Shown here: piece by piece, positions 10,535-44,248 of the stretch
Layout of the letters: each line of letters begins with the position of its first letter
Numbering within the stretch: position 1 is the stretch's first letter
Origin: Escherichia phage EC147
DNA: 46,060 bases
Strand: one strand, 5' to 3'
Sequence record: ON185589.1
Position numbers and translations under genes: made by a program
The notes under the pieces: model-generated
Told to the model about the DNA's origin: nothing
Seen by the model: the letters and a program-made list of their open reading frames with translations, nothing else
Database searches by the model: none

Positions 10535-10579
10535 ATGATACACGATTCATAATCAATTCTTTTAACAAAAAGTGCTGTT
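10535..10579 (-). promoter_or_regulatory. copy of conserved 21-bp element with -10-like TATCAT, antisense to tail genes
   Basis: minus-strand reading AACAGCACTTTTTGTTAAAAG + 18 nt + TATCAT; sits between terminator and tail chaperone RBS. Confidence 0.35.
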
Positions 10580-20272: not shown

Positions 20273-20944
20273 ATGAGTTACGGTGCTTTATTAAATCTTA
20301 ATAACGGAAATCCATTTGTTACGCCAAATTCAACGCCTTTTGTATTATATAAAAAAGTAAATGTATCATCTTCCGCTAACGGAGTTTTTCAATCAGCATC
20401 AACTAATATTCCAATCAGTTCAAGTTATCCGGCAATAGCATTTTTGAAAACAACTTACACAGCACAACCAACAATGGTTGGTTCAAGAAGAAATGGAGAC
20501 AGTATAGTTGTTAGCTCAAGCAATCCATTTGGTAAATCACACACTTTAACAGCTTATGTTTTTGCAAGATTCCCTCAGCCATTGCCAAAATATGGAATGG
20601 CAATTTGGGATGAAGGAGGTACGTGTATATTAACAAATGAATCAAAGGTTTTAACAGATCTAGTGACCATTGGGGCACCTGGAGTTAATGGTGGTATAAA
20701 TATAGATGAAACGTTATCAGGAAGTTATGCAGTATCACCTGGAATATTGGGTTCTACGCTAATTAGATTTTTTGTTCAAGGTCAACCACAGGTTATTTCT
20801 ATTACTGCATTCACAGGCGCCAGGTTTAACGGGTCAACAACAAGAATATCAGCAGCAAGCGGTAATAATGCAACCGGATCTGTTGTTGGATATACAAATA
20901 ATGGCAATGCAATAACAGCCATCAAGACTGATATTTACGACTAA
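20273..20944 (+). CDS. hypothetical protein (tail fiber-associated by position)
   Basis: ATG at 20273 after GGAGAAA; 223 aa; Ser/Thr/Asn/Gly-rich; last gene of the structural operon. Confidence 0.45.
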   Translation: MSYGALLNLNNGNPFVTPNSTPFVLYKKVNVSSSANGVFQSASTNIPISSSYPAIAFLKTTYTAQPTMVGSRRNGDSIVVSSSNPFGKSHTLTAYVFARFPQPLPKYGMAIWDEGGTCILTNESKVLTDLVTIGAPGVNGGINIDETLSGSYAVSPGILGSTLIRFFVQGQPQVISITAFTGARFNGSTTRISAASGNNATGSVVGYTNNGNAITAIKTDIYD

Positions 20945-20980
20945 TGAAAAAAGGGGCTTTCGCCCCTTTATTTTTATTTA
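20945..20980. terminator. bidirectional terminator between tail operon and cor
   Basis: AGGGGC-TTTC-GCCCCT flanked by an A-run upstream and a T-run downstream. Confidence 0.65.
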
Positions 20981-21205
20981 CAGACTGCAATCAGCGTTTT
21001 TAAAGTTATCAATACTTACCCACTGAAAATTAAACGGATAGCCAGCCTTAACAAGAGTGCGGTCGCCAACTCGTTTTACTCCAAAAATAGCAACTGAATA
21101 CTGCATACCGCTATTTTCATAAATAGCCGTGCATTCACGTTTAGGCATATTTGCGCAACCAGTCAGGGTTACGGCTGCAATCAAAACGGCGATTAATTTT
21201 TTCAT
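20978..21205 (-). CDS. cor: Cor-like superinfection-exclusion lipoprotein
   Basis: 75 aa; signal peptide with lipobox LTGC; small minus-strand lipoprotein gene right after the tail genes, as in T1/phi80. Confidence 0.7.
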   Translation of the reverse strand: MKKLIAVLIAAVTLTGCANMPKRECTAIYENSGMQYSVAIFGVKRVGDRTLVKAGYPFNFQWVSIDNFKNADCSL

Positions 21206-21236
21206 CTTGGTATCTCCTTCGTTGTTGTTGGTTGCA

Positions 21237-21281
21237 ACTATACACGATCTTACAGCAGGCGTTTAGCAAAAAGTGCTATTC
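21237..21281 (-). promoter_or_regulatory. conserved 21-bp element + N18 + TATAGT (cor promoter)
   Basis: minus-strand reading ATAGCACTTTTTGCTAAAC + 18 nt + TATAGT, about 30 nt upstream of the cor ATG. Confidence 0.55.
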
Positions 21282-21339
21282 TGTTCTTTTTGCTCTCATG
21301 TGTTCTCAAATCTGCGGAGGCGTAAATTTAGAGCAAAAA

Positions 21340-21520
21340 GTAAACAACAATAGAGAGCAATATATACAGATAAATATATATAAATACATATAAATCAATA
21401 AGTTAGTGGTATATGTATTTATATCTGTTCTTTATTGTTATCTATGTTTTGTGTGATTTTGCGTGTCTGGTGATTTTTCTGTGATTATGCATGTGTCAGT
21501 GGTTATGTGTGTATATATCT
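21340..21520. repeat. AT-rich region with ATAAAT/ATATATA tracts and GTGATT-type direct repeats
   Basis: about 500 bp non-coding between cor and exonuclease; GTGATTTT-like repeats near 21453, 21470, 21481, 21499; TGTTATC at 21436. Confidence 0.5.
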
Positions 21521-21647
21521 ATATCCTGCGCAAATGGAGGAACAAGAGAACAAAAAGACAACTCGGATATTTATCAATAACTTACATGTAAGTTTTGTTA
21601 TCCAGGTTGGTGAGAACGTTGTTAGAACATAAAAAACAAAATAGCTA

Positions 21648-21675
21648 TTGACTAAACGCATCAAATAGCTACAAT
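21648..21675 (+). promoter_or_regulatory. sigma70-like promoter for the recombination operon
   Basis: TTGACT (21648-53), 16-nt spacer, TACAAT (21670-75), about 30 nt upstream of ATG 21705. Confidence 0.5.
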
Positions 21676-21704
21676 GCAGGCATACCAACAAACGAGGGCA
21701 AATC

Positions 21705-22766
21705 ATGAATAAGTTTATGGCGTACACCAGCGAAGAAATGAGCAACGAGCTTTATCACGATCCAGAAGCGTGGACGGCTGATTATGTTAGCGGTTCAAGC
21801 CTGGCGGAGATTTACAGCACATGCCCGGCAGCGTGGAAGTTCAAGCCGCGTGACGACAAGAGCAAGGCGCTAGTTTTTGGTACGCAGTCGCATACCAACT
21901 TTGAAAGCAAGGAGCTTTTCGAAAAAACCTATCGCCGTGCGCCAGCGCCAGAAGACTTTAAGGATCTGATAACCAGCCAAACGGCGCTTGCTGCAAAGCT
22001 GAAATCATTTGGCCTGAAAGGTACAACCGGAAAGACTTACCCCGAACTTATAAAAATGATGGTCGACTGCGGAGAAGACCTTAACGTCATGTGGTTAATC
22101 GACATGATCGCAGAAAGTCAGGCCAGGGCCGATGGGGTTCAGTTAATCGAAGCTAAAGATTACGATTCGTGCGTTGCAATGCGCCAGGTTCTGGAATCAA
22201 TACCGGAACATAACGCATGTATGAATAGCAAGACAGCACAACGTGAATTATCGTTGTTCGGTGAAATCAACGGCGTAAAAGTCAAAGTGCGATGCGATCA
22301 CGTTGACGTAACAAAGAACGTCACCGCAACGCTGATTGATGGTTACGATGAAAAAGGTCAACCGATTTGCCGCGATATTATTTATCCAGAGGCGATTGTG
22401 ATTACTGACTACAAAACAACAATGAGCGCTAATCCGGTTGAGTTTATGCGCCTGGCTTACAATCACGGCTATTATCTGAAAATGGCGTTGCAATGTGATT
22501 TATTCAGGAAAGCGTATCCAGAAGAAAAGCGACCTATAGTTGTGCGCCTGTTAGCGCAAGAGAAGAAAGAGCCTTACTTGCCGTTAGCTTTCCGCATGAA
22601 CAGCGAGCAATTGAAGATCGGGCGCATTCAGTACATGAGCGTAATTAACCAGTTTGCCATGTGCCAGCAACATGACGTTTGGCCTTCGTATTCAAACGGC
22701 GAGCCGGAGGTTTGCCTTGATACTCCTGATTGGGTGCGACGCCAGTTTAAGCAATATCTTATTTAA
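21705..22766 (+). CDS. PD-(D/E)xK family exonuclease (RecE-like)
   Basis: 353 aa; motif VRCDHVDV..ITDYKT fits a D..(D/E)xK nuclease core; first gene of the exonuclease-Erf-SSB cluster. Confidence 0.55.
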   Translation: MNKFMAYTSEEMSNELYHDPEAWTADYVSGSSLAEIYSTCPAAWKFKPRDDKSKALVFGTQSHTNFESKELFEKTYRRAPAPEDFKDLITSQTALAAKLKSFGLKGTTGKTYPELIKMMVDCGEDLNVMWLIDMIAESQARADGVQLIEAKDYDSCVAMRQVLESIPEHNACMNSKTAQRELSLFGEINGVKVKVRCDHVDVTKNVTATLIDGYDEKGQPICRDIIYPEAIVITDYKTTMSANPVEFMRLAYNHGYYLKMALQCDLFRKAYPEEKRPIVVRLLAQEKKEPYLPLAFRMNSEQLKIGRIQYMSVINQFAMCQQHDVWPSYSNGEPEVCLDTPDWVRRQFKQYLI

Positions 22767-27942: not shown

Positions 27943-28416
27943 TTAGCAATTAGTGCTTTCAGGTTTATACAGGAATCCGCCAGGTTCATAATCTGACATT
28001 CTTACCACTCGCAACATTTCACGCTTATCACATCTCTTTGTGAGCGGTTTTCCATTGGAATCAAATCGCAGATCTGGACGGCAGAATGAAGCGCGATAGC
28101 CTTGACAGTCATACTTTTTGTAATCGTTATGCACCTTTTGAGCACCAGCGGCTGAAATCATACCACGAACGCGCCACTGATTTACAGTTTGCTGGCTAAC
28201 GTTAAGACGTTTTGCCATTGCTGACACACTTCCGTAATACTCAATAAGGATTTCAAGTCGCGCTTTTAGTCCGGCTCGCACTTCATCTTTTAAAACATAG
28301 TATCCTGTAGGGCGCTTGCGCTTCTTCTTATCCTTGCCTCGTCTTGTTCCGTTATTGCCATTAATTGTGCGCTTGTCAATCTTGCCTGTTGATGCTGCAA
28401 TTCGTTGCTCTTTCAT
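27943..28416 (-). CDS. putative HTH DNA-binding regulator
   Basis: 157 aa; basic N-terminus (KDKKKRKRP) and helix-turn-helix-like VSAMAKRLNVSQQTVNQWRVRG; diverges from the helicase promoter. Confidence 0.55.
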   Translation of the reverse strand: MKEQRIAASTGKIDKRTINGNNGTRRGKDKKKRKRPTGYYVLKDEVRAGLKARLEILIEYYGSVSAMAKRLNVSQQTVNQWRVRGMISAAGAQKVHNDYKKYDCQGYRASFCRPDLRFDSNGKPLTKRCDKREMLRVVRMSDYEPGGFLYKPESTNC

Positions 28417-30957: not shown

Positions 30958-30997
30958 CACTTTTTGTTAAAACAGGCGCGAAGGATTGCGCCATAAT
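30953..30997 (+). promoter_or_regulatory. conserved element + N18 + CATAAT (dam promoter)
   Basis: AATAGCACTTTTTGTTAAAAC (30953-73) overlapping the VRR-NUC stop TAG; CATAAT at 30992-97. Confidence 0.55.
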
Positions 30998-32568: not shown

Positions 32569-32580
32569 GGAGAATTTTTG

Positions 32581-33696
32581 ATGAAGCAAATCAAAATCAC
32601 AGATGAACAATTTATCAATGAGCGCAAGCAGGGAAAGACATATAAGCAGATCGCTAGTGAGTATGGCATGAACGTTCGCAGCATTGAGCGACGCGCGGCA
32701 CGATTAGCAAAGCAAGGTAAAGTTACAACCATCGGATCACCTGGTTTTGGTGTTACTGGAGAATCAAAGCTAATTGATAAAGATGGCAATGTGGTTATGA
32801 TATGGATTAAGACAAGCAAAGACCGCGAACAGTTAGAAGCATTAATGCAGGCCGCTATGGATGCATTTAGCGAAGAGGTTCCTCGACTTGATCCACAGAC
32901 AGAATCACAAAAGGATTATAGCGAGACGCTATCACTGTATCCGATCTTTGACATGCACTTGGGCGCAATGGCGCATAAGCATGAATGCGGCGAGAATTGG
33001 GATACAGCAACAGCAGAGCGCGTAATGAATAATTTCATTGATTATTCCATCCAGTGTGCGCCGGATAGTGAAAAAGCTGTTTTGCTGATTGGTGGTGATA
33101 TGCTTCACAGCGACGGACTGGAAGCGGTGACACCTGCAAGCGGTCACGTATTGGATCAAGATAGTAGATATGCAAAACTTGTTTATGTTGCCATCCGGTC
33201 AGTGCGTCGAGCAATTACAAAGCTGTTATCAAAACACAAAAACGTCGAGATTCAGATCATTGAAGGCAACCACGACCAAAGCGGCATGATCTGGTTGCGC
33301 GCAGCAATGGCGGCAGCATATGAGAATGAGCCACGAGTGCATGTTGATGTGTCTCCGCGAGTGGTTCATCACACACAATATGGCAAAACGTTCCTGGCAT
33401 ACCATCACGGGCATACTATCCGCAAACCTGAAACATTGCTAATGATGTGCGCGGCAGACTGGCGCGAAGACTTCGGCAATTCAAAAATGATGTATGCTCA
33501 CGTAGGGCACTGGCATCATCAAACAGTAACTGAAACAAGCCTGGGAATTGTTGAAGTGCATAGCACTATGGCGGCAAAAGATGCATATGCTGCGCGCGGT
33601 GGATGGCGTTCTCGTCGCCGTGCGGCTGTTATTGTTTATGATAAAGAATACGGAGAAGTAGGGCGATTTATGCATTATCCAGAAATGGCTGGTTGA
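32581..33696 (+). CDS. calcineurin-like metallophosphoesterase with N-terminal HTH-like region
   Basis: motifs DMH, GGDMLHSDG, EGNHD, HHGH, GHWHH; N-terminal KTYKQIASEYGMNVRSIERRAARL; ATG 32581 after AGGAG. Confidence 0.65.
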   Translation: MKQIKITDEQFINERKQGKTYKQIASEYGMNVRSIERRAARLAKQGKVTTIGSPGFGVTGESKLIDKDGNVVMIWIKTSKDREQLEALMQAAMDAFSEEVPRLDPQTESQKDYSETLSLYPIFDMHLGAMAHKHECGENWDTATAERVMNNFIDYSIQCAPDSEKAVLLIGGDMLHSDGLEAVTPASGHVLDQDSRYAKLVYVAIRSVRRAITKLLSKHKNVEIQIIEGNHDQSGMIWLRAAMAAAYENEPRVHVDVSPRVVHHTQYGKTFLAYHHGHTIRKPETLLMMCAADWREDFGNSKMMYAHVGHWHHQTVTETSLGIVEVHSTMAAKDAYAARGGWRSRRRAAVIVYDKEYGEVGRFMHYPEMAG

Positions 33697-35772: not shown

Positions 35773-37356
35773 TTACCCCAGCAATGTTGGATTTACGAAA
35801 ACAACGCCATTAATCACACAAATATAATTTCTTTCTTCAAGCATCGGCAGCAGTTGCGTTTCCATACGCTTCATTACGCCAGCCTGACCAACAAACGGCT
35901 TAACTTTTCGTGCAGCCTCATATATGGCGCGAACATTCAAGATTCCCTTGTTAGCCTTACCGTGTCGAGTGATAATCTCGATTAGTTTACCCATTTCAGC
36001 ATCATCACCAGCATAGCCAGAAGCGTTGGCGGCGCTAATGTATGTTTTGCTCAACTCGCTAAACATCAGCAACGCCTCTTGAACGGTTTCAACCTCAATC
36101 TCTTTCGACTTCTGAGGGTATCCACCAGGATTAAACCAGTTGCGGATAGTGTGCAAAACTGAAGCAATCCTGATCACCTGCTTATCCATTTTGCCAAGCG
36201 CGCCGCGCAGCATTGTATGCGAATACTTTCCGCCATCGGCAAGGTGCGGTTCCATCTCCTGACGAGCCATGTTAAGAACTCGCATTGCTGATTTGCTGAT
36301 CTTAAGCTGGATGTTTGATTCACTCATGATGTTATGGATCAGCTTAAAATATTGACTTTTCAGTTCTCCATCAACAGGCTCATAAGTCGAATCACCGTTA
36401 TCATCAACAAACTTTCGACGACCTAAAAATGATTCCTCACGCACAAGCAAATAACGCTCACTTACACCGATACCGCGCGATCCTGCATCCATGATGGCAT
36501 TGATTGTTTCATCCTGAGCAATTACCGCCATACAGCCAAGAGCTTTAAAACTCATATTGTTGTCAGCGTTTGCACGAGCTATAGAAACATGACCATGATC
36601 CCATGCTTTTAGCACAAGTTCGCTGTTGGTTTTACGTTCGCTATTGGCATATGTCAGACCTAAAAGGCTGTTAATACTGGTTGCCTCGTCTGAAATCACA
36701 GCAAAGTTACCCTGGCGATTGTTGATTCTTGCAAGTCCTTCCGGCGTTGTGTCGGAGACAGGGAAAACAATGTCACACATCTTTTCCAGCTTTTCTTCAA
36801 GATCTTCTTTCTCCTGGTATAGCGATTCCATATCAGCGCCAGATCGCTCGCTTTTCATCTCTTTTGCAAGACCTGCCAACTTTGCCTGAATCTTTTTTCG
36901 TTCCTTCTTTCGCTGATCATTAATTCTTTCCACTTCAGCAACCATAGGAGCAATAGCCAGGCTGTTAACGGCAGATTTACCAGTTGAAGGAGGCTGACTT
37001 GTGACAACATAAAGAGCGGTTGGCTGATCCGTTCCGTGATACTCAACCGTGAAGCGTCCAAGCATTGCAGCAGACACGCAGCCGATGAAATGCATATAGG
37101 CCGATGATTCAGGGAATTGAACAGAGCGAGCAATGTTTCGCGCCAACTTACCAACAACATCAACATCATTGCCAAGAGAAATTACAGGGTAGCGATCGTT
37201 TCCGTTATTAACATCATTAACCTCACCCCAAAAGCTGGACGATTGACGGTATCCGTTAGCCTGAATGGACACGCGCACCGGAGACAGTCCTTGTGCATCA
37301 GCTAATTCGATAATTTGTTTTGGTGTTAGTTTATTTGTTTCAAACGAAAAATTCAT
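35773..37356 (-). CDS. putative P-loop ATPase (replication-associated)
   Basis: ATG 37356 after AAAGGAG (ORF track extends into the promoter); Walker A-like QPPSTGKS and Walker B-like VISDEA; 527 aa. Confidence 0.45.
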   Translation of the reverse strand: MNFSFETNKLTPKQIIELADAQGLSPVRVSIQANGYRQSSSFWGEVNDVNNGNDRYPVISLGNDVDVVGKLARNIARSVQFPESSAYMHFIGCVSAAMLGRFTVEYHGTDQPTALYVVTSQPPSTGKSAVNSLAIAPMVAEVERINDQRKKERKKIQAKLAGLAKEMKSERSGADMESLYQEKEDLEEKLEKMCDIVFPVSDTTPEGLARINNRQGNFAVISDEATSINSLLGLTYANSERKTNSELVLKAWDHGHVSIARANADNNMSFKALGCMAVIAQDETINAIMDAGSRGIGVSERYLLVREESFLGRRKFVDDNGDSTYEPVDGELKSQYFKLIHNIMSESNIQLKISKSAMRVLNMARQEMEPHLADGGKYSHTMLRGALGKMDKQVIRIASVLHTIRNWFNPGGYPQKSKEIEVETVQEALLMFSELSKTYISAANASGYAGDDAEMGKLIEIITRHGKANKGILNVRAIYEAARKVKPFVGQAGVMKRMETQLLPMLEERNYICVINGVVFVNPTLLG

Positions 37357-37383
37357 TGGTGATAACTCCTTTTTGATGCGGCA

Positions 37384-37428
37384 ATAATACCGCACCAATG
37401 CTACCCGCATTTAACAAAAAATGCTATT
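37384..37428 (-). promoter_or_regulatory. conserved element + N19 + TATTAT
   Basis: minus-strand ATAGCATTTTTTGTTAAAT + 19 nt + TATTAT; element overlaps stop TAG of the upstream gene. Confidence 0.55.
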
Positions 37429-38059: not shown

Positions 38060-38104
38060 ATTATGCCAGGCTTTTACACCTGGCTTTTAACAAAAAGTGC
38101 TATT
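38060..38104 (-). promoter_or_regulatory. conserved element + N18 + CATAAT
   Basis: minus-strand ATAGCACTTTTTGTTAAAAG + CCAGGTGTAAAAGCCTGG + CATAAT; element TAG is the stop codon of the methyltransferase-like gene. Confidence 0.55.
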
Positions 38105-39885: not shown

Positions 39886-40124
39886 TAGATTTTCTCCAAA
39901 TTCTCGATCTTGTTATTGCCAATTGAAGAATGAACGCAACGCTCTTGCGTCTCCTTGTTGCCATGAACATCAATATAATACCCTGGTATAACAGTAAAAA
40001 ACCAATTGCCACGCCAGAAGAAATAAAGGCCGTGCTTGCTTCCTTTCGCGCATTTATTCGCATTTTTAGGTATTGGAAGTCCGTGGACTCGCCGCAATTC
40101 TACATTCTTGTTAAAATTTGGCAT
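39885..40124 (-). CDS. hypothetical protein
   Basis: 79 aa, RBS GGAGG; Trp/Phe-rich. Confidence 0.45.
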   Translation of the reverse strand: MPNFNKNVELRRVHGLPIPKNANKCAKGSKHGLYFFWRGNWFFTVIPGYYIDVHGNKETQERCVHSSIGNNKIENLEKI

Positions 40125-40318
40125 TATACAACCTCCATAAATGTATTAAACCCGCGAAGTTTGAAAGCATCGCCATGTTTAACAACGTTCCATGTCAGGC
40201 CGGAGTGATACGCAACCATATCCTCAAGATCAATTGTGATGATAGCGCCTTTCTTAAAGATTCCTTTCTCGTGAGTGGTGTCACGCTGTACAACTTTAAC
40301 ATCAACCTGTGTTTCCAT
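40124..40318 (-). CDS. hypothetical protein (first gene of minus-strand early operon)
   Basis: 64 aa, RBS GAGGA; promoter element directly upstream. Confidence 0.5.
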   Translation of the reverse strand: METQVDVKVVQRDTTHEKGIFKKGAIITIDLEDMVAYHSGLTWNVVKHGDAFKLRGFNTFMEVV

Positions 40319-40394: not shown

Positions 40395-40430
40395 TCTCAA
40401 CTGGCGATTATTCCATCTATTCAATTAATC

Positions 40431-40928
40431 AGGAATAACAGGAATAACTTATTCGAGATCACCTTGATTGTGAGATCTTGAGTTTGATCAATTTTAATCA
40501 GTTGATTAACTTTTTGTGTGGAGGGGATAGAGAAACACGGTCCTCTTGCATCCTTTCCGGTAATCCTAGCGCGCGCATCTGTTATCTTCTGTTATCGCTG
40601 TTATGCGTGTTATTCCGGCGTGGAATCGCATAACAAAAAATAACAAGAAAAATCCATATAACATACTAAAAAATAAGGATTATTTATTTATATGTATCTA
40701 TAAATTATTATCTGTTATGTGTGTTATGTGGGTGTATTGATAACTGATGTATTTTTGGTGGTTGTGTGTGGTTGTGTGTTGGTTGGTATGTATATATAGG
40801 GGTGGGGCGTATCCGCGCATTTTTAGATAACACGCAAAAACAACATTGATTTATAAGAAAAAAAACGCGAATCTTGTTATCTTCTGAAAAGATAACATCG
40901 GAAAACCGCCAGTAACAATAAAAAACAG
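40431..40928. repeat. iteron-rich, AT-rich intergenic region (candidate origin / control region)
   Basis: tandem AGGAATAAC x2 (40431-48); GATC x3 (40457-89); palindrome TAATCAGTTGATTA (40495-508); TGTTAT x4 at 9-10 bp period (40580-614); more TGTTATC/GATAACA copies; GTTGTGTGTG x2 (40761-80). Confidence 0.6.
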
Positions 40929-40958
40929 TTGACACGCCAGGTGGCGGTAAATGATAAT
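40929..40958 (+). promoter_or_regulatory. sigma70-like promoter for plus-strand early operon
   Basis: TTGACA (40929-34), 18-nt spacer, GATAAT (40953-58). Confidence 0.5.
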
Positions 40959-41715: not shown

Positions 41716-41760
41716 AATAGCACTTTTTGTTAAAACGCCAGGCGCAAAACCTGGCATAAT
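41716..41760 (+). promoter_or_regulatory. conserved element + N18 + CATAAT
   Basis: AATAGCACTTTTTGTTAAAAC + GCCAGGCGCAAAACCTGG + CATAAT. Confidence 0.55.
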
Positions 41761-42278: not shown

Positions 42279-42596
42279 ATGTTAAAACTTGCTGACATTA
42301 AATACCCGATCACATTCGAATCTCGCGGCGTTGGTCATTTCATGTTTACCGACGAGAAGACATGCACTAAGTTTAACGAATACGGAAGCCCAAACGCTTC
42401 AACAATGGAGATTGAACACTTCATTGAAGCGCACAATAAACACTACAACTCACTCAGAGACTACGCTTACGCAATGCCAGGATACACATGTTTTCACTAC
42501 AAGCCATATAAAGGCCAGGTGTTACCAGTGCGCTCACCGGAACGCGCAGAGATTCCGATGGTCAATATGAAAACCTGCGACTACAAAAAGCTGTGA
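42279..42596 (+). CDS. hypothetical protein (N-terminal domain paralogous to next ORF)
   Basis: 105 aa, RBS AGGAG; ADIKYPITF..AHNK resembles DNIKYPIVF..AHNK of ORF 42622; stop TGA is created inside a 16-bp tandem duplication. Confidence 0.5.
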   Translation: MLKLADIKYPITFESRGVGHFMFTDEKTCTKFNEYGSPNASTMEIEHFIEAHNKHYNSLRDYAYAMPGYTCFHYKPYKGQVLPVRSPERAEIPMVNMKTCDYKKL

Positions 42597-42610
42597 CTAC
42601 AAAAAGCTGT
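42579..42610 (+). repeat. perfect 16-bp tandem duplication (GACTACAAAAAGCTGT x2)
   Basis: copy 1 at 42579-94, copy 2 at 42595-610; spans the stop codon at 42594-96; 16 is not a multiple of 3. Confidence 0.9.
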
Positions 42611-42621
42611 GGTGCTTAAGC

Positions 42622-44173: not shown

Positions 44174-44216
44174 TAGCACTTTTTGTTAAAACTTCCGCGA
44201 GGGCATTTGTTAAAGT
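44172..44216 (+). promoter_or_regulatory. conserved element + N18 + TAAAGT (weaker -10)
   Basis: AATAGCACTTTTTGTTAAAAC overlapping the upstream stop TAA; TAAAGT at 44211-16. Confidence 0.45.
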
Positions 44217-44248
44217 GTCCTCATTGAAGCGAAACAGAGGAAATCAAA

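Follow-up and report, generated by a model that had tools for sequence, protein, structure and literature searches.

A conserved non-coding gap between cor and the exonuclease VIII gene of a T1-like phage, and its paralogue, as a candidate origin-like module

In Escherichia phage EC147 (sequence record ON185589.1, a stretch of 46,060 nucleotides hereafter called the window), the start of the cor gene (21205, minus strand) and the ATG of the exonuclease VIII gene (21705) are separated by a gap of 499 bp. Judging from its sequence, this gap is a conserved, non-coding control region with two promoters, both of which face outwards. Its two edges were already described for phage TLS, as a 21-nt repeat and a promoter called P51 (PMC11447400); the new part is the approximately 330 bp between these known edges, which the TLS paper does not describe (PMC11447400). 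Our tentative reading of this centre is an origin-like module for DNA unwinding, present in the genome together with one paralogue and bound by a phage protein, and we give this reading somewhat less than an even chance. An origin-like module is ranked first because an extreme unwinding element, repeats in two orientations, IHF-consensus sites and outward promoters are found together in a phage that encodes a primase and two helicases without a recognised origin.

With 99.3% identity, a 901-base query containing the gap (window 20900-21800) matches Escherichia phage aalborv, a T1-like phage (Hanrivervirus, Tempevirinae, Drexlerviridae), and 'aalborv' stands for the window genome in all comparisons between phages. 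The elements of the centre, and the second module, are the following.

21282-21307, plus strand: boxes TGTTCT (21282-21287) and TGTTCTC (21301-21307), left of the TA-rich core
21312-21322, no strand assigned: left GC-rich clamp CTGCGGAGGCG, then the conserved GTAAATTTAG; a conserved block in the alignment of 15 phages
21360-21459, no strand assigned: TA-rich core resembling a DNA-unwinding element; least stable 100 bp of the window, with ATAAATACAT repeats of 10-bp period
21393-21405, plus strand: IHF-consensus match AATCAATAAGTTA (WATCAANNNNTTR), from a motif scan
21426-21442, plus strand: box pair TGTTCT / TGTTATC at a distance of 10 bp, adjoining the TA core on its right; position kept in 15 phages with variants
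21443-21512, plus strand: G+T-rich, strand-asymmetric segment with GTGATTWT repeats and a 20-nt repeat at 28-bp spacing
21523-21535, no strand assigned: right GC-rich clamp ATCCTGCGCAAAT; consensus ATCCGGCGCAAAT kept across genera, aligning with TATCCGCGCATTT of the other gap
21539-21558, minus strand: inverted boxes GGAACA / GAGAACA, then AAAAAGAC, of which GAACAAGnGAACA is conserved
21572-21594, plus strand: second IHF-consensus match TATCAATAACTTA (21572-21584) and the overlapping 16-bp perfect palindrome AACTTACATGTAAGTT (21579-21594)
40624-40958, plus strand: paralogous module with its own sigma-70 promoter (TTGACA 40929-40934, GATAAT 40953-40958), found by colinear alignment

An extreme unwinding core, present twice per genome

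The TA-rich core has a nearest-neighbour free energy of -1.03 kcal/mol per bp, compared with -1.36 on average for the genome (z=5.1). A comparable site is found only once more in the window: the core of the paralogous module at 40630-40729, which is the second least stable. This property is shared by other phages: in a whole-genome nearest-neighbour scan of aalborv, T1, Henu7, PHB17 and Rtp, five genomes that represent three subfamilies, the two gap cores occupy ranks 1 and 2 in duplex instability, with z values of 4.3-5.9 for the cores and of at most 3.8 for the site of rank 3. The ATAAATACAT tract within the core comprises 3.6 copies (21360-21395; Tandem Repeats Finder), and the GC content of 0.30 in 21301-21600 is the lowest of all 300-bp bins of the window. 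A weak prediction of intrinsic bending has its maximum near 21331 (z=4.4, third in the window); the same model gives no curvature for the TA core itself. We also considered a conserved cruciform in the core and rejected it, as the hairpin is significant in aalborv (z=-3.8) but not in eight of nine other cores.

Once the promoter cassettes had been trimmed, 21349-21602 was found to align colinearly with 40624-40881, with a score of 54 versus 17.7 +/- 2.8 for dinucleotide shuffles. On the strength of this alignment we consider the two modules to be paralogues. They have the same succession of elements, namely the TA core, the TGTT box pair, a G+T-rich stretch, GTATATAT, a GC clamp (ATCC-GCGCA), ACAAAAA-ACAAC, a GTTATC-N9-GA(G/T)AAC inverted pair, an A-tract and a near-consensus sigma-70 promoter. 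The similarity between the two gaps of a genome is greater in the forward orientation than for the reverse complement in aalborv, T1, Henu7 and PHB17 (z of at least 7.9). In Rtp, which belongs to a different subfamily, the gap-versus-gap score is 88 compared with 17.4 +/- 2.6, with a clearly similar core of about 165 nt. Every Drexlerviridae genome examined carries the module pair.

The first-pass annotation had pointed to TGTTATC and AATAGC as sub-motifs common to the gap and to the 40.4-40.9 kb region. TGTTATC is indeed shared, and the colinear alignment goes further than what had been claimed. In contrast, the sharing of AATAGC is not specific to the two regions, since this motif is the 5' end of the 14-mer AATAGCACTTTTTG of the 21-nt repeat, which precedes about a dozen genes genome-wide.

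As for the surroundings of the second module, the first gene leftward of the other gap (40124-40318, minus strand) matches the Pfam family 'Phage antiviral trigger protein Gp54' (E=5e-37), and the first gene rightward is DUF7174. The part specific to the other gap, 40430-40660, starts with two CAGGAATAA copies (40430-40448); further on come four tandem TGTTAT(C) boxes with 9-10-bp spacing (40580-40613) and three inverted ATAACA boxes (40630-40663).

Boxes that change together in the two gaps

TGTT[AC]T, a box that was defined after inspection of the sequence, occurs seven times in the gap versus 0.6-1.3 expected (a count reached by none of 1000 shuffles) and 13 times in the other gap versus about one, again more than in any shuffle. 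The boxes, about eight in the gap, flank the TA core in both orientations, GGAACA and GAGAACA forming inverted repeats with the left-hand TGTTCT boxes. The position of TGTTCTC at 21301 is kept with variants, TGTTATC in Warwickvirus and TGTTCAC/T in Changchunvirus and KLB26, and the arrangement that follows the TA core is found again in the other gap as CTGTTATGTGTGTTATG (40712-40728). In the G+T-rich segment, GTGATTWT is present at 21453, 21470 and 21481, with a variant, GTGGTTAT, at 21500; the three exact copies compare with 0.14 expected, and none of 500 dinucleotide shuffles reached that number. The two IHF-consensus matches of the gap compare with 0.08 expected, and a motif scan of the gap for the DnaA box TTWTNCACA returned none. 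All the components listed by the first-pass annotation, that is, some 500 bp of AT-rich non-coding DNA with its repeats and a sigma70-like promoter, are present where it had placed them, and its repeats exceed the chance expectation.

For each phage, words enriched in both gaps were searched for without bias. The top word is TGTTATC in aalborv and TGTTACA in T1, where it occurs in 4+2 copies and is absent from the other 47.6 kb (P=6e-15). In PHB17, it is TGTTCAC, which loses significance once the number of words tested is corrected for. The top words of Rtp are CCGCGGA, which is analogous to the left clamp and ranks first among the words common to both Rtp gaps, and GTTACRC repeats at 10-11-bp spacing; its cores are flanked by GTTACGC boxes with CCGCGG. 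Just right of the TA core, both aalborv copies have TGTTAT and both PHB17 copies TGTTCAC. As the box sequence shifts jointly in the two gaps from one phage to another although the host is the same, the boxes are most simply explained by a binder that the phage encodes. The idea of a common binding protein for both regions, already raised in the first-pass annotation, thus gains support from box enrichment, from colinearity in five phages and from box co-variation. Host-factor boxes were also considered (consensus sequences of ArcA, OmpR, Fur, CRP, LexA and Fis); none fits in spacing or sequence, and a host factor is made less plausible by the lineage-specific box variants.

Which phage protein might bind the boxes? 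One gene stands out.

27943-28416, minus strand: Cro/YdaS-like helix-turn-helix (HTH) protein of 157 amino acids, its gene immediately preceding, upstream and on the same strand, that of the primase

Its recognition helix begins with a different residue in each of the five phages (Q, N, P, H or F), while the protein is otherwise conserved and has an invariant basic N-terminal arm (INGNNG..R..DKK.R.R). Such a pattern is as would be expected of a DNA binder that switches specificity. We consider this protein to be a candidate box binder and nothing more. Another possible DNA-binding candidate is a homologue of phosphoesterases and DNA-repair exonucleases (32578-33696, plus strand), with weak N-terminal matches to HTH and sigma-70 region-4-like domains (residues 11-47, E about 0.002-0.007).

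Among the replication proteins, we found a primase Zn-ribbon, a RadD-like helicase and a DUF3987 helicase (35773-37410, minus strand), the last having no sequence homologue with a solved structure. Of the 20 proteins scanned, none was recognisable as a classical initiator. The TLS authors reported no origin-type repeats in the TLS genome (PMC11447400), and, in the library searched, no paper on T1-like phages that dealt with origins or with the mapping of transcription starts came to light.

The right edge: promoter of the exonuclease VIII-Erf-SSB operon

The exonuclease VIII gene heads an operon that also contains the genes for Erf and SSB. Its features are as follows.

21597-21617, no strand assigned: inverted pair of boxes, GTTATC-N9-GAGAAC, with its centre 41 nt upstream of the -35 element
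21620-21647, plus strand: A-rich tract resembling an UP element, AGAACATAAAAAACAAAATAGCTA, directly upstream of the -35 element; nearly invariant as AACAGAAAAAACAAAA in the alignment
21648-21675, plus strand: sigma-70 promoter TTGACT-16-TACAAT of the operon, with 10 of 12 consensus matches; equivalent of TLS P51
21705-22766, plus strand: exonuclease VIII / RecE-like gene, right flank; DUF3799 PDDEXK domain and annotation

The promoter stretch ATTGACTAAA...GCTAnAAT is invariant in 15 phages including T1, and Tlsvirus GS71 has the same promoter (-35 TTGACTA) together with the same 5' untranslated region. In TLS, only three sigma-70 promoters were predicted, one of which, P51, is located upstream of the exonuclease gene (PMC11447400). 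AATAGCTA occurs at 21640, where it abuts the -35 element, and again at 21664, where it overlaps the -10 element (P=1.4e-5). The other gap has a parallel A-tract, ACAATAAAAAACAG, before its -35 element, and a GTTATC-N9-GATAAC pair (40876-40896) that is centred 43 nt upstream of it. As for the GTTATC-N9-GAGAAC pair, its left half is widely kept and its right half is found only in the aligned Hanrivervirus and Warwickvirus phages.

The left edge: a marbox-like repeat upstream of cor

The leftward promoter is associated with a member of a repeat family that is dispersed over the genome.

20978-21205, minus strand: cor (superinfection exclusion lipoprotein), left flank; open reading frame (ORF) of 75 amino acids, annotated Cor in NC_049829, with a lipoprotein signal match
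21237-21242, minus strand: TATAGT, a -10-like hexamer for leftward transcription of cor, at 19 nt downstream from the marbox-like repeat, a geometry as in the other copies
21261-21281, minus strand: copy of the Drexlerviridae 21-nt direct repeat, gaATAGCACTTTTTGCTAAAC, which fits the TLS consensus aaATAGCACnnnTTGnTAAAA
Marbox 15-mers on the minus strand, first base on own strand: 6815, 10575, 21276, 27956, 35257, 37424, 38100, 40390
Marbox 15-mers on the plus strand, first base on own strand: 28433, 30957, 31998, 41720, 42183, 44176

German and colleagues (2024) described the 21-nt direct repeat aaATAGCACnnnTTGnTAAAA in TLS, where 18 copies lie between genes, some 76 nt before start codons, and declared its function unknown (PMC11447400). 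The copy of the gap is co-oriented with cor and lies 77 nt upstream of the cor ATG, and the ACTATAC of the cor -10 region is kept in 13 of the 15 aligned phages. The core of this repeat copy (21262-21276, minus strand) matches at 15 of 15 positions the pattern GCAHWWWWTGYYAAA, the marbox consensus of MarA/SoxS/Rob derived from chromatin immunoprecipitation and quoted in PMC6900184. The window contains 14 matches to this pattern versus 0.03 expected, and T1, Henu7, PHB17 and Rtp contain 9-12 each. All but one of the 14 are co-oriented with the downstream gene, the exception being that at 10575 (minus strand), which is found among plus-strand tail genes and has no gene downstream. Similarly, the nine exact copies of the 14-mer AATAGCACTTTTTG are each co-oriented with the downstream gene, and after about 20 nt each has a -10-like hexamer.

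A -10-like hexamer follows the AAA by 19-20 nt in 12 of the 14 copies, which places the marbox centre near -40. At promoters of class II, the marbox has its centre between -36 and -55, in forward orientation, and overlaps the -35 element (PMC12052159). With the transcription start deduced from the -10-like hexamer, the 21-nt repeat is thus placed as in class II MarA/SoxS/Rob promoters. The resemblance of the cor repeat to such E. coli promoters extends to its 15/15 match to GCAHWWWWTGYYAAA. It differs from them in that the phage has no MarA/SoxS homologue, and the repeat is a candidate site predicted from its sequence. No homologue of MarA or SoxS was detected in the phages by tblastn, so that binding would fall to host Rob/MarA/SoxS or to a mimic. 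We found no literature that links the 21-nt repeat to the marbox.

In nine of the 14 repeat copies, a hairpin is present within the stretch that goes from the marbox-like element to the -10 hexamer. The hairpins are mostly located between the two elements, and some overlap or enclose the -10 hexamer; their sequence varies from copy to copy while pairing is kept. Examples in the 20 nt after the repeats are those at 30976-30993, 38068-38085 (minus strand), 41738-41756 and 44200-44223. A stem-loop inside a promoter spacer is odd. Some of these promoter-spacer hairpins are annotated as terminators in T1, and the cor copy has none. Beyond cor, at 20950-20969, cor and a tail-associated gene are separated by an intrinsic terminator that is bidirectional (AAAGGGGCTTTCGCCCCTTT), each strand having its T-run.

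Conservation of the gap

In the alignment of 15 phages, the elements kept across genera are the promoter, three TGTTnnC box positions, the TA core, the two GC clamps and the second IHF-like site. The core of the latter, AATCAnnnACTTA, is kept in most genera; the first IHF site is kept only in the aligned Hanrivervirus and Warwickvirus phages (including BEK12B, filed under Hanrivervirus) and Henu7. The GTGATT repeats are specific to Hanrivervirus, only G+T richness persisting elsewhere and GGTGATTT being the only part of that segment that is widely kept. Similarly, the palindrome AACTTACATGTAAGTT is present only in Hanrivervirus genomes. The question of whether the repeats occur in related genomes, which the first-pass annotation had regarded as decisive, thus receives a divided answer: promoter, TGTTnnC positions and TA core are kept, but the GTGATT repeats and the palindrome are confined to Hanrivervirus.

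At least 80% of the gap is covered in 134 of the 154 phage records that match. The gap, although non-coding, is under selection: its identity tracks that of the first 370 nt of the exonuclease VIII gene at each distance (93.4/93.8, 74.3/74.1, 72.3/74.9 and 67.5/70.0), and its length stays near 500 bp (342 bp in Rtp) whichever gene adjoins it on the left. T1 has the same layout with a gap of 527 bp. A search for the module in E. coli genomes or plasmids, such as those of a hijacking satellite, gave no match. Among the records inspected, the only non-coding annotation of the gap is one unlabelled repeat_region in phage haarsle, at the equivalent of 21443-21512.

A possible mechanism, and what weighs against it

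If the origin-like reading is correct, a phage-encoded, sequence-specific protein, for which the 157-residue Cro/YdaS-like HTH protein is the best candidate, would bind the boxes, IHF would bend the DNA, and divergent transcription would feed negative supercoiling into the gap. The TA core would melt, the DUF3987 helicase and the primase would be loaded at the melted core, and replication would start with the host DNA polymerase III. The adjacent RecE, Erf and SSB proteins might then take replication on to the recombination-dependent phase, known for T1, in which concatemers form. The first-pass annotation had proposed a recombination-dependent replication start; the anatomy would be compatible with an unwinding site of origin type, which leaves such a start a proposal. 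The box-bound protein may also modulate both flanking promoters. In a more ambitious form, which we consider doubtful, both modules would be replication origins with cores and lineage-specific boxes read by the Cro-like HTH protein and, separately, cor and a dozen other promoters would be of class II marbox type, with host Rob/MarA/SoxS or a mimic driving most non-early transcription.

Several observations argue against an origin-like function. The boxes of the gap are few and mostly unphased, with one pair 10 bp apart, and clear box arrays phased at 9-11 bp next to a TA core are present only in the paralogous gap and in Rtp. The two copies of TGTTATC (21436 and 21596) compare with 0.2 expected (P=0.017), which is weak alone, and the TGTT[AC]T pattern was chosen with the sequence in view. 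In Henu7, the search for words common to both gaps yielded no clear box consensus, and the correlation between HTH protein and boxes rests on five genomes that differ everywhere. The reverse-complement control of the alignment between the two modules scores 41, AT-rich and partly palindromic sequence inflating similarity scores. The GC skew reaches +0.26 for 21301-21600 and, in the bin of the paralogue (40501-40800), +0.30; along the genome it tracks transcription only and gives no independent origin signal, and because it follows gene orientation it is uninformative in this respect. AT-rich bent DNA and repeated operators would also fit a purely transcriptional control region, as would the invariant strong promoter with a UP-like tract at the gap edge. 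Finally, two origins in a 46-kb genome are unusual, though SPP1 has two.

Alternative explanations

The most serious alternative is that the gap serves transcription control only, as the upstream region of the two main early promoters for host RNA polymerase (here P51, plus the cor promoter). We regard this as possible, on balance rather unlikely. Bent and AT-rich DNA, the UP-like tract and IHF would then boost the promoter, and the boxes would be operators through which a phage regulator times or shuts off early transcription. Both modules are located on a fixed side of a near-consensus sigma-70 promoter, with about 245 bp from core to -35 element, and two of the three sigma-70 promoters predicted in TLS are the module promoters (PMC11447400). 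Furthermore, an A-tract is conserved upstream of the -35 element, an inverted box pair is found 41-43 nt upstream of it in both copies, and the inverted GTGTAACAC / GTGTTACA pair of T1 overlaps the presumed core of the promoter of the other gap, like an operator; a Cro-like HTH protein encoded by the phage and the predicted bend at 21331 point in the same direction. Nevertheless, the TA core, at 190-290 bp from the -35 element, is too far for a UP-element effect, and no box lies over a core promoter in the window phage. Such a module is missing from TLS P57, the third early promoter. Promoter function does not need a genome minimum of duplex stability kept in three subfamilies, and a compact genome (about 92% coding) retains some 330 bp beyond what two promoters require. 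The origin-like and transcription-control readings are compatible and do not exclude each other.

An architectural or recombination site is improbable in our view. The module pair would be bridged by a phage or host nucleoid protein through looping, or the gap would be a preferred entry point for RecE/Erf recombination and would not be a start site itself. The presence of exactly two copies with co-varying boxes, the IHF-consensus sites and the proximity of the recE-erf-ssb operon are in line with this, and P4 offers a precedent in which two separated regions are needed, both with TGTTCACC repeats (crr as an enhancer-like partner of ori). However, the gap contains no Chi site or known recombination signal, and simple bridging would make an unwinding core unnecessary.

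A packaging site, either pac or the recognition site of the terminase small subunit, had been envisaged in the first-pass annotation, and we now consider it very unlikely for this gap. The suggestion has some appeal, as phased short repeats are typical of terminase sites and the GenBank records of T1, TLS, Rtp and PHB17 open in the related gap. Yet their start points fall to the left of the module that the gaps have in common, some 215 nt from the TA core in T1 and Rtp, in a segment that has no counterpart in the cor-exonuclease gap, and the four tandem TGTTATC copies of that segment (40580-40613) are missing here. T1 packaging is reported to start from a single pac site. Because the records open in the equivalent segment, the array at 40430-40660 becomes a candidate pac site or terminase-binding array. 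The pac site of TLS was mapped by restriction analysis (PMC11447400), its placement in the other gap being deduced only from record starts.

Equally improbable is an AT-rich spacer between promoters, devoid of specific function, whose repeats would result from slippage. The lineage specificity of the GTGATT repeats and of the palindromes would be consistent with such a spacer, but conservation is near that of coding DNA at each distance, length and order are kept across subfamilies, and there is a paralogue with co-varying boxes.

A small RNA or small protein encoded in the gap is the least credible possibility, for although single-sequence folds beat shuffles (z -4.0 and -4.9 on the two strands) and a few depositors annotate small ORFs, there is no Rfam match, the consensus fold is negligible, the ORF is broken in phage damhaus, the annotated ORFs differ, not being common between phages, and terminator prediction found no internal terminator in the gap. 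The ORF scan found none longer than 42 amino acids wholly within the 499 bp, and the longest (21463-21591) is disrupted by a 2-nt indel in damhaus, the nearest genus-mate, which led us to reject a hidden small gene. Searches for Rfam families and tRNA in the gap gave none, and a conserved RNA structure was likewise rejected, the consensus fold of 15 homologues reaching just -6.35 kcal/mol with a covariation term of -0.83. The fold scores on both strands are explained by the inverted repeats of the DNA.

Relation to known systems

The intergenic elements of the window correspond to those of TLS at both edges, with a repeat copy directed towards cor 77 nt from its ATG (about 76 in TLS) and an equivalent of P51 on the right. 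In contrast, the TLS paper has no account of the centre of about 330 bp, of its paralogue or of the unwinding core (PMC11447400).

Outward-firing promoters around a core concentrate negative supercoiling. The arrangement of an AT-rich core between outward promoters is reminiscent of the T7 primary origin, of oriC with gidA and mioC, and of the ICP1 origin in an AT-rich divergent gap. Unlike in these, no transcript is predicted across the core of the window, so a mechanism in which an R-loop provides the primer has no support.

The closest parallels to an origin-like pair of modules are oriL/oriR of SPP1 and ori plus crr of P4. There, too, two non-coding regions carry short direct and inverted repeats beside the least stable DNA, and the phage has its own primase and helicase. 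In addition, TGTTCAC of PHB17 and TGTTATC of the window resemble the P4 octamer TGTTCACC. The differences are that the boxes of the window are sparse and mostly unphased, with a candidate initiator predicted from sequence, and that the primase and helicase of T1-like phages are separate proteins rather than one protein of the alpha type of P4.

The PR/PRM operators of lambdoid phages, bound by CI and Cro, similarly occupy a short non-coding region that separates divergent promoters and contains repeated sites, and there, too, the phage encodes an HTH protein of the Cro type. In contrast, the gap of the window is five times longer, its boxes are off the core promoters, and it has an extreme TA core and occurs twice per genome.

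Of the remaining features of the window, the top-scoring tandem repeat is AAAAGCTGTGACTACA (2.6 copies, 92% identity, 42570-42611), which straddles the end of an early gene and the brief intergenic stretch that follows it.

Significance

T1 is one of the seven classic T phages, and its relatives often turn up as contaminants in laboratories and are among the components of therapy cocktails. The gap and its paralogue offer two bounded candidates, of about 330 bp each, for the replication origin of T1-like phages. Should the origin-like reading hold, this would be the first location of an origin in a classic T phage. As for the marbox reading, it would, if true, answer the question that the TLS authors left open on the 21-nt repeat. 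If the two modules are origins or master control sites, they would be among the pieces needed to engineer or disable T1-like phages.

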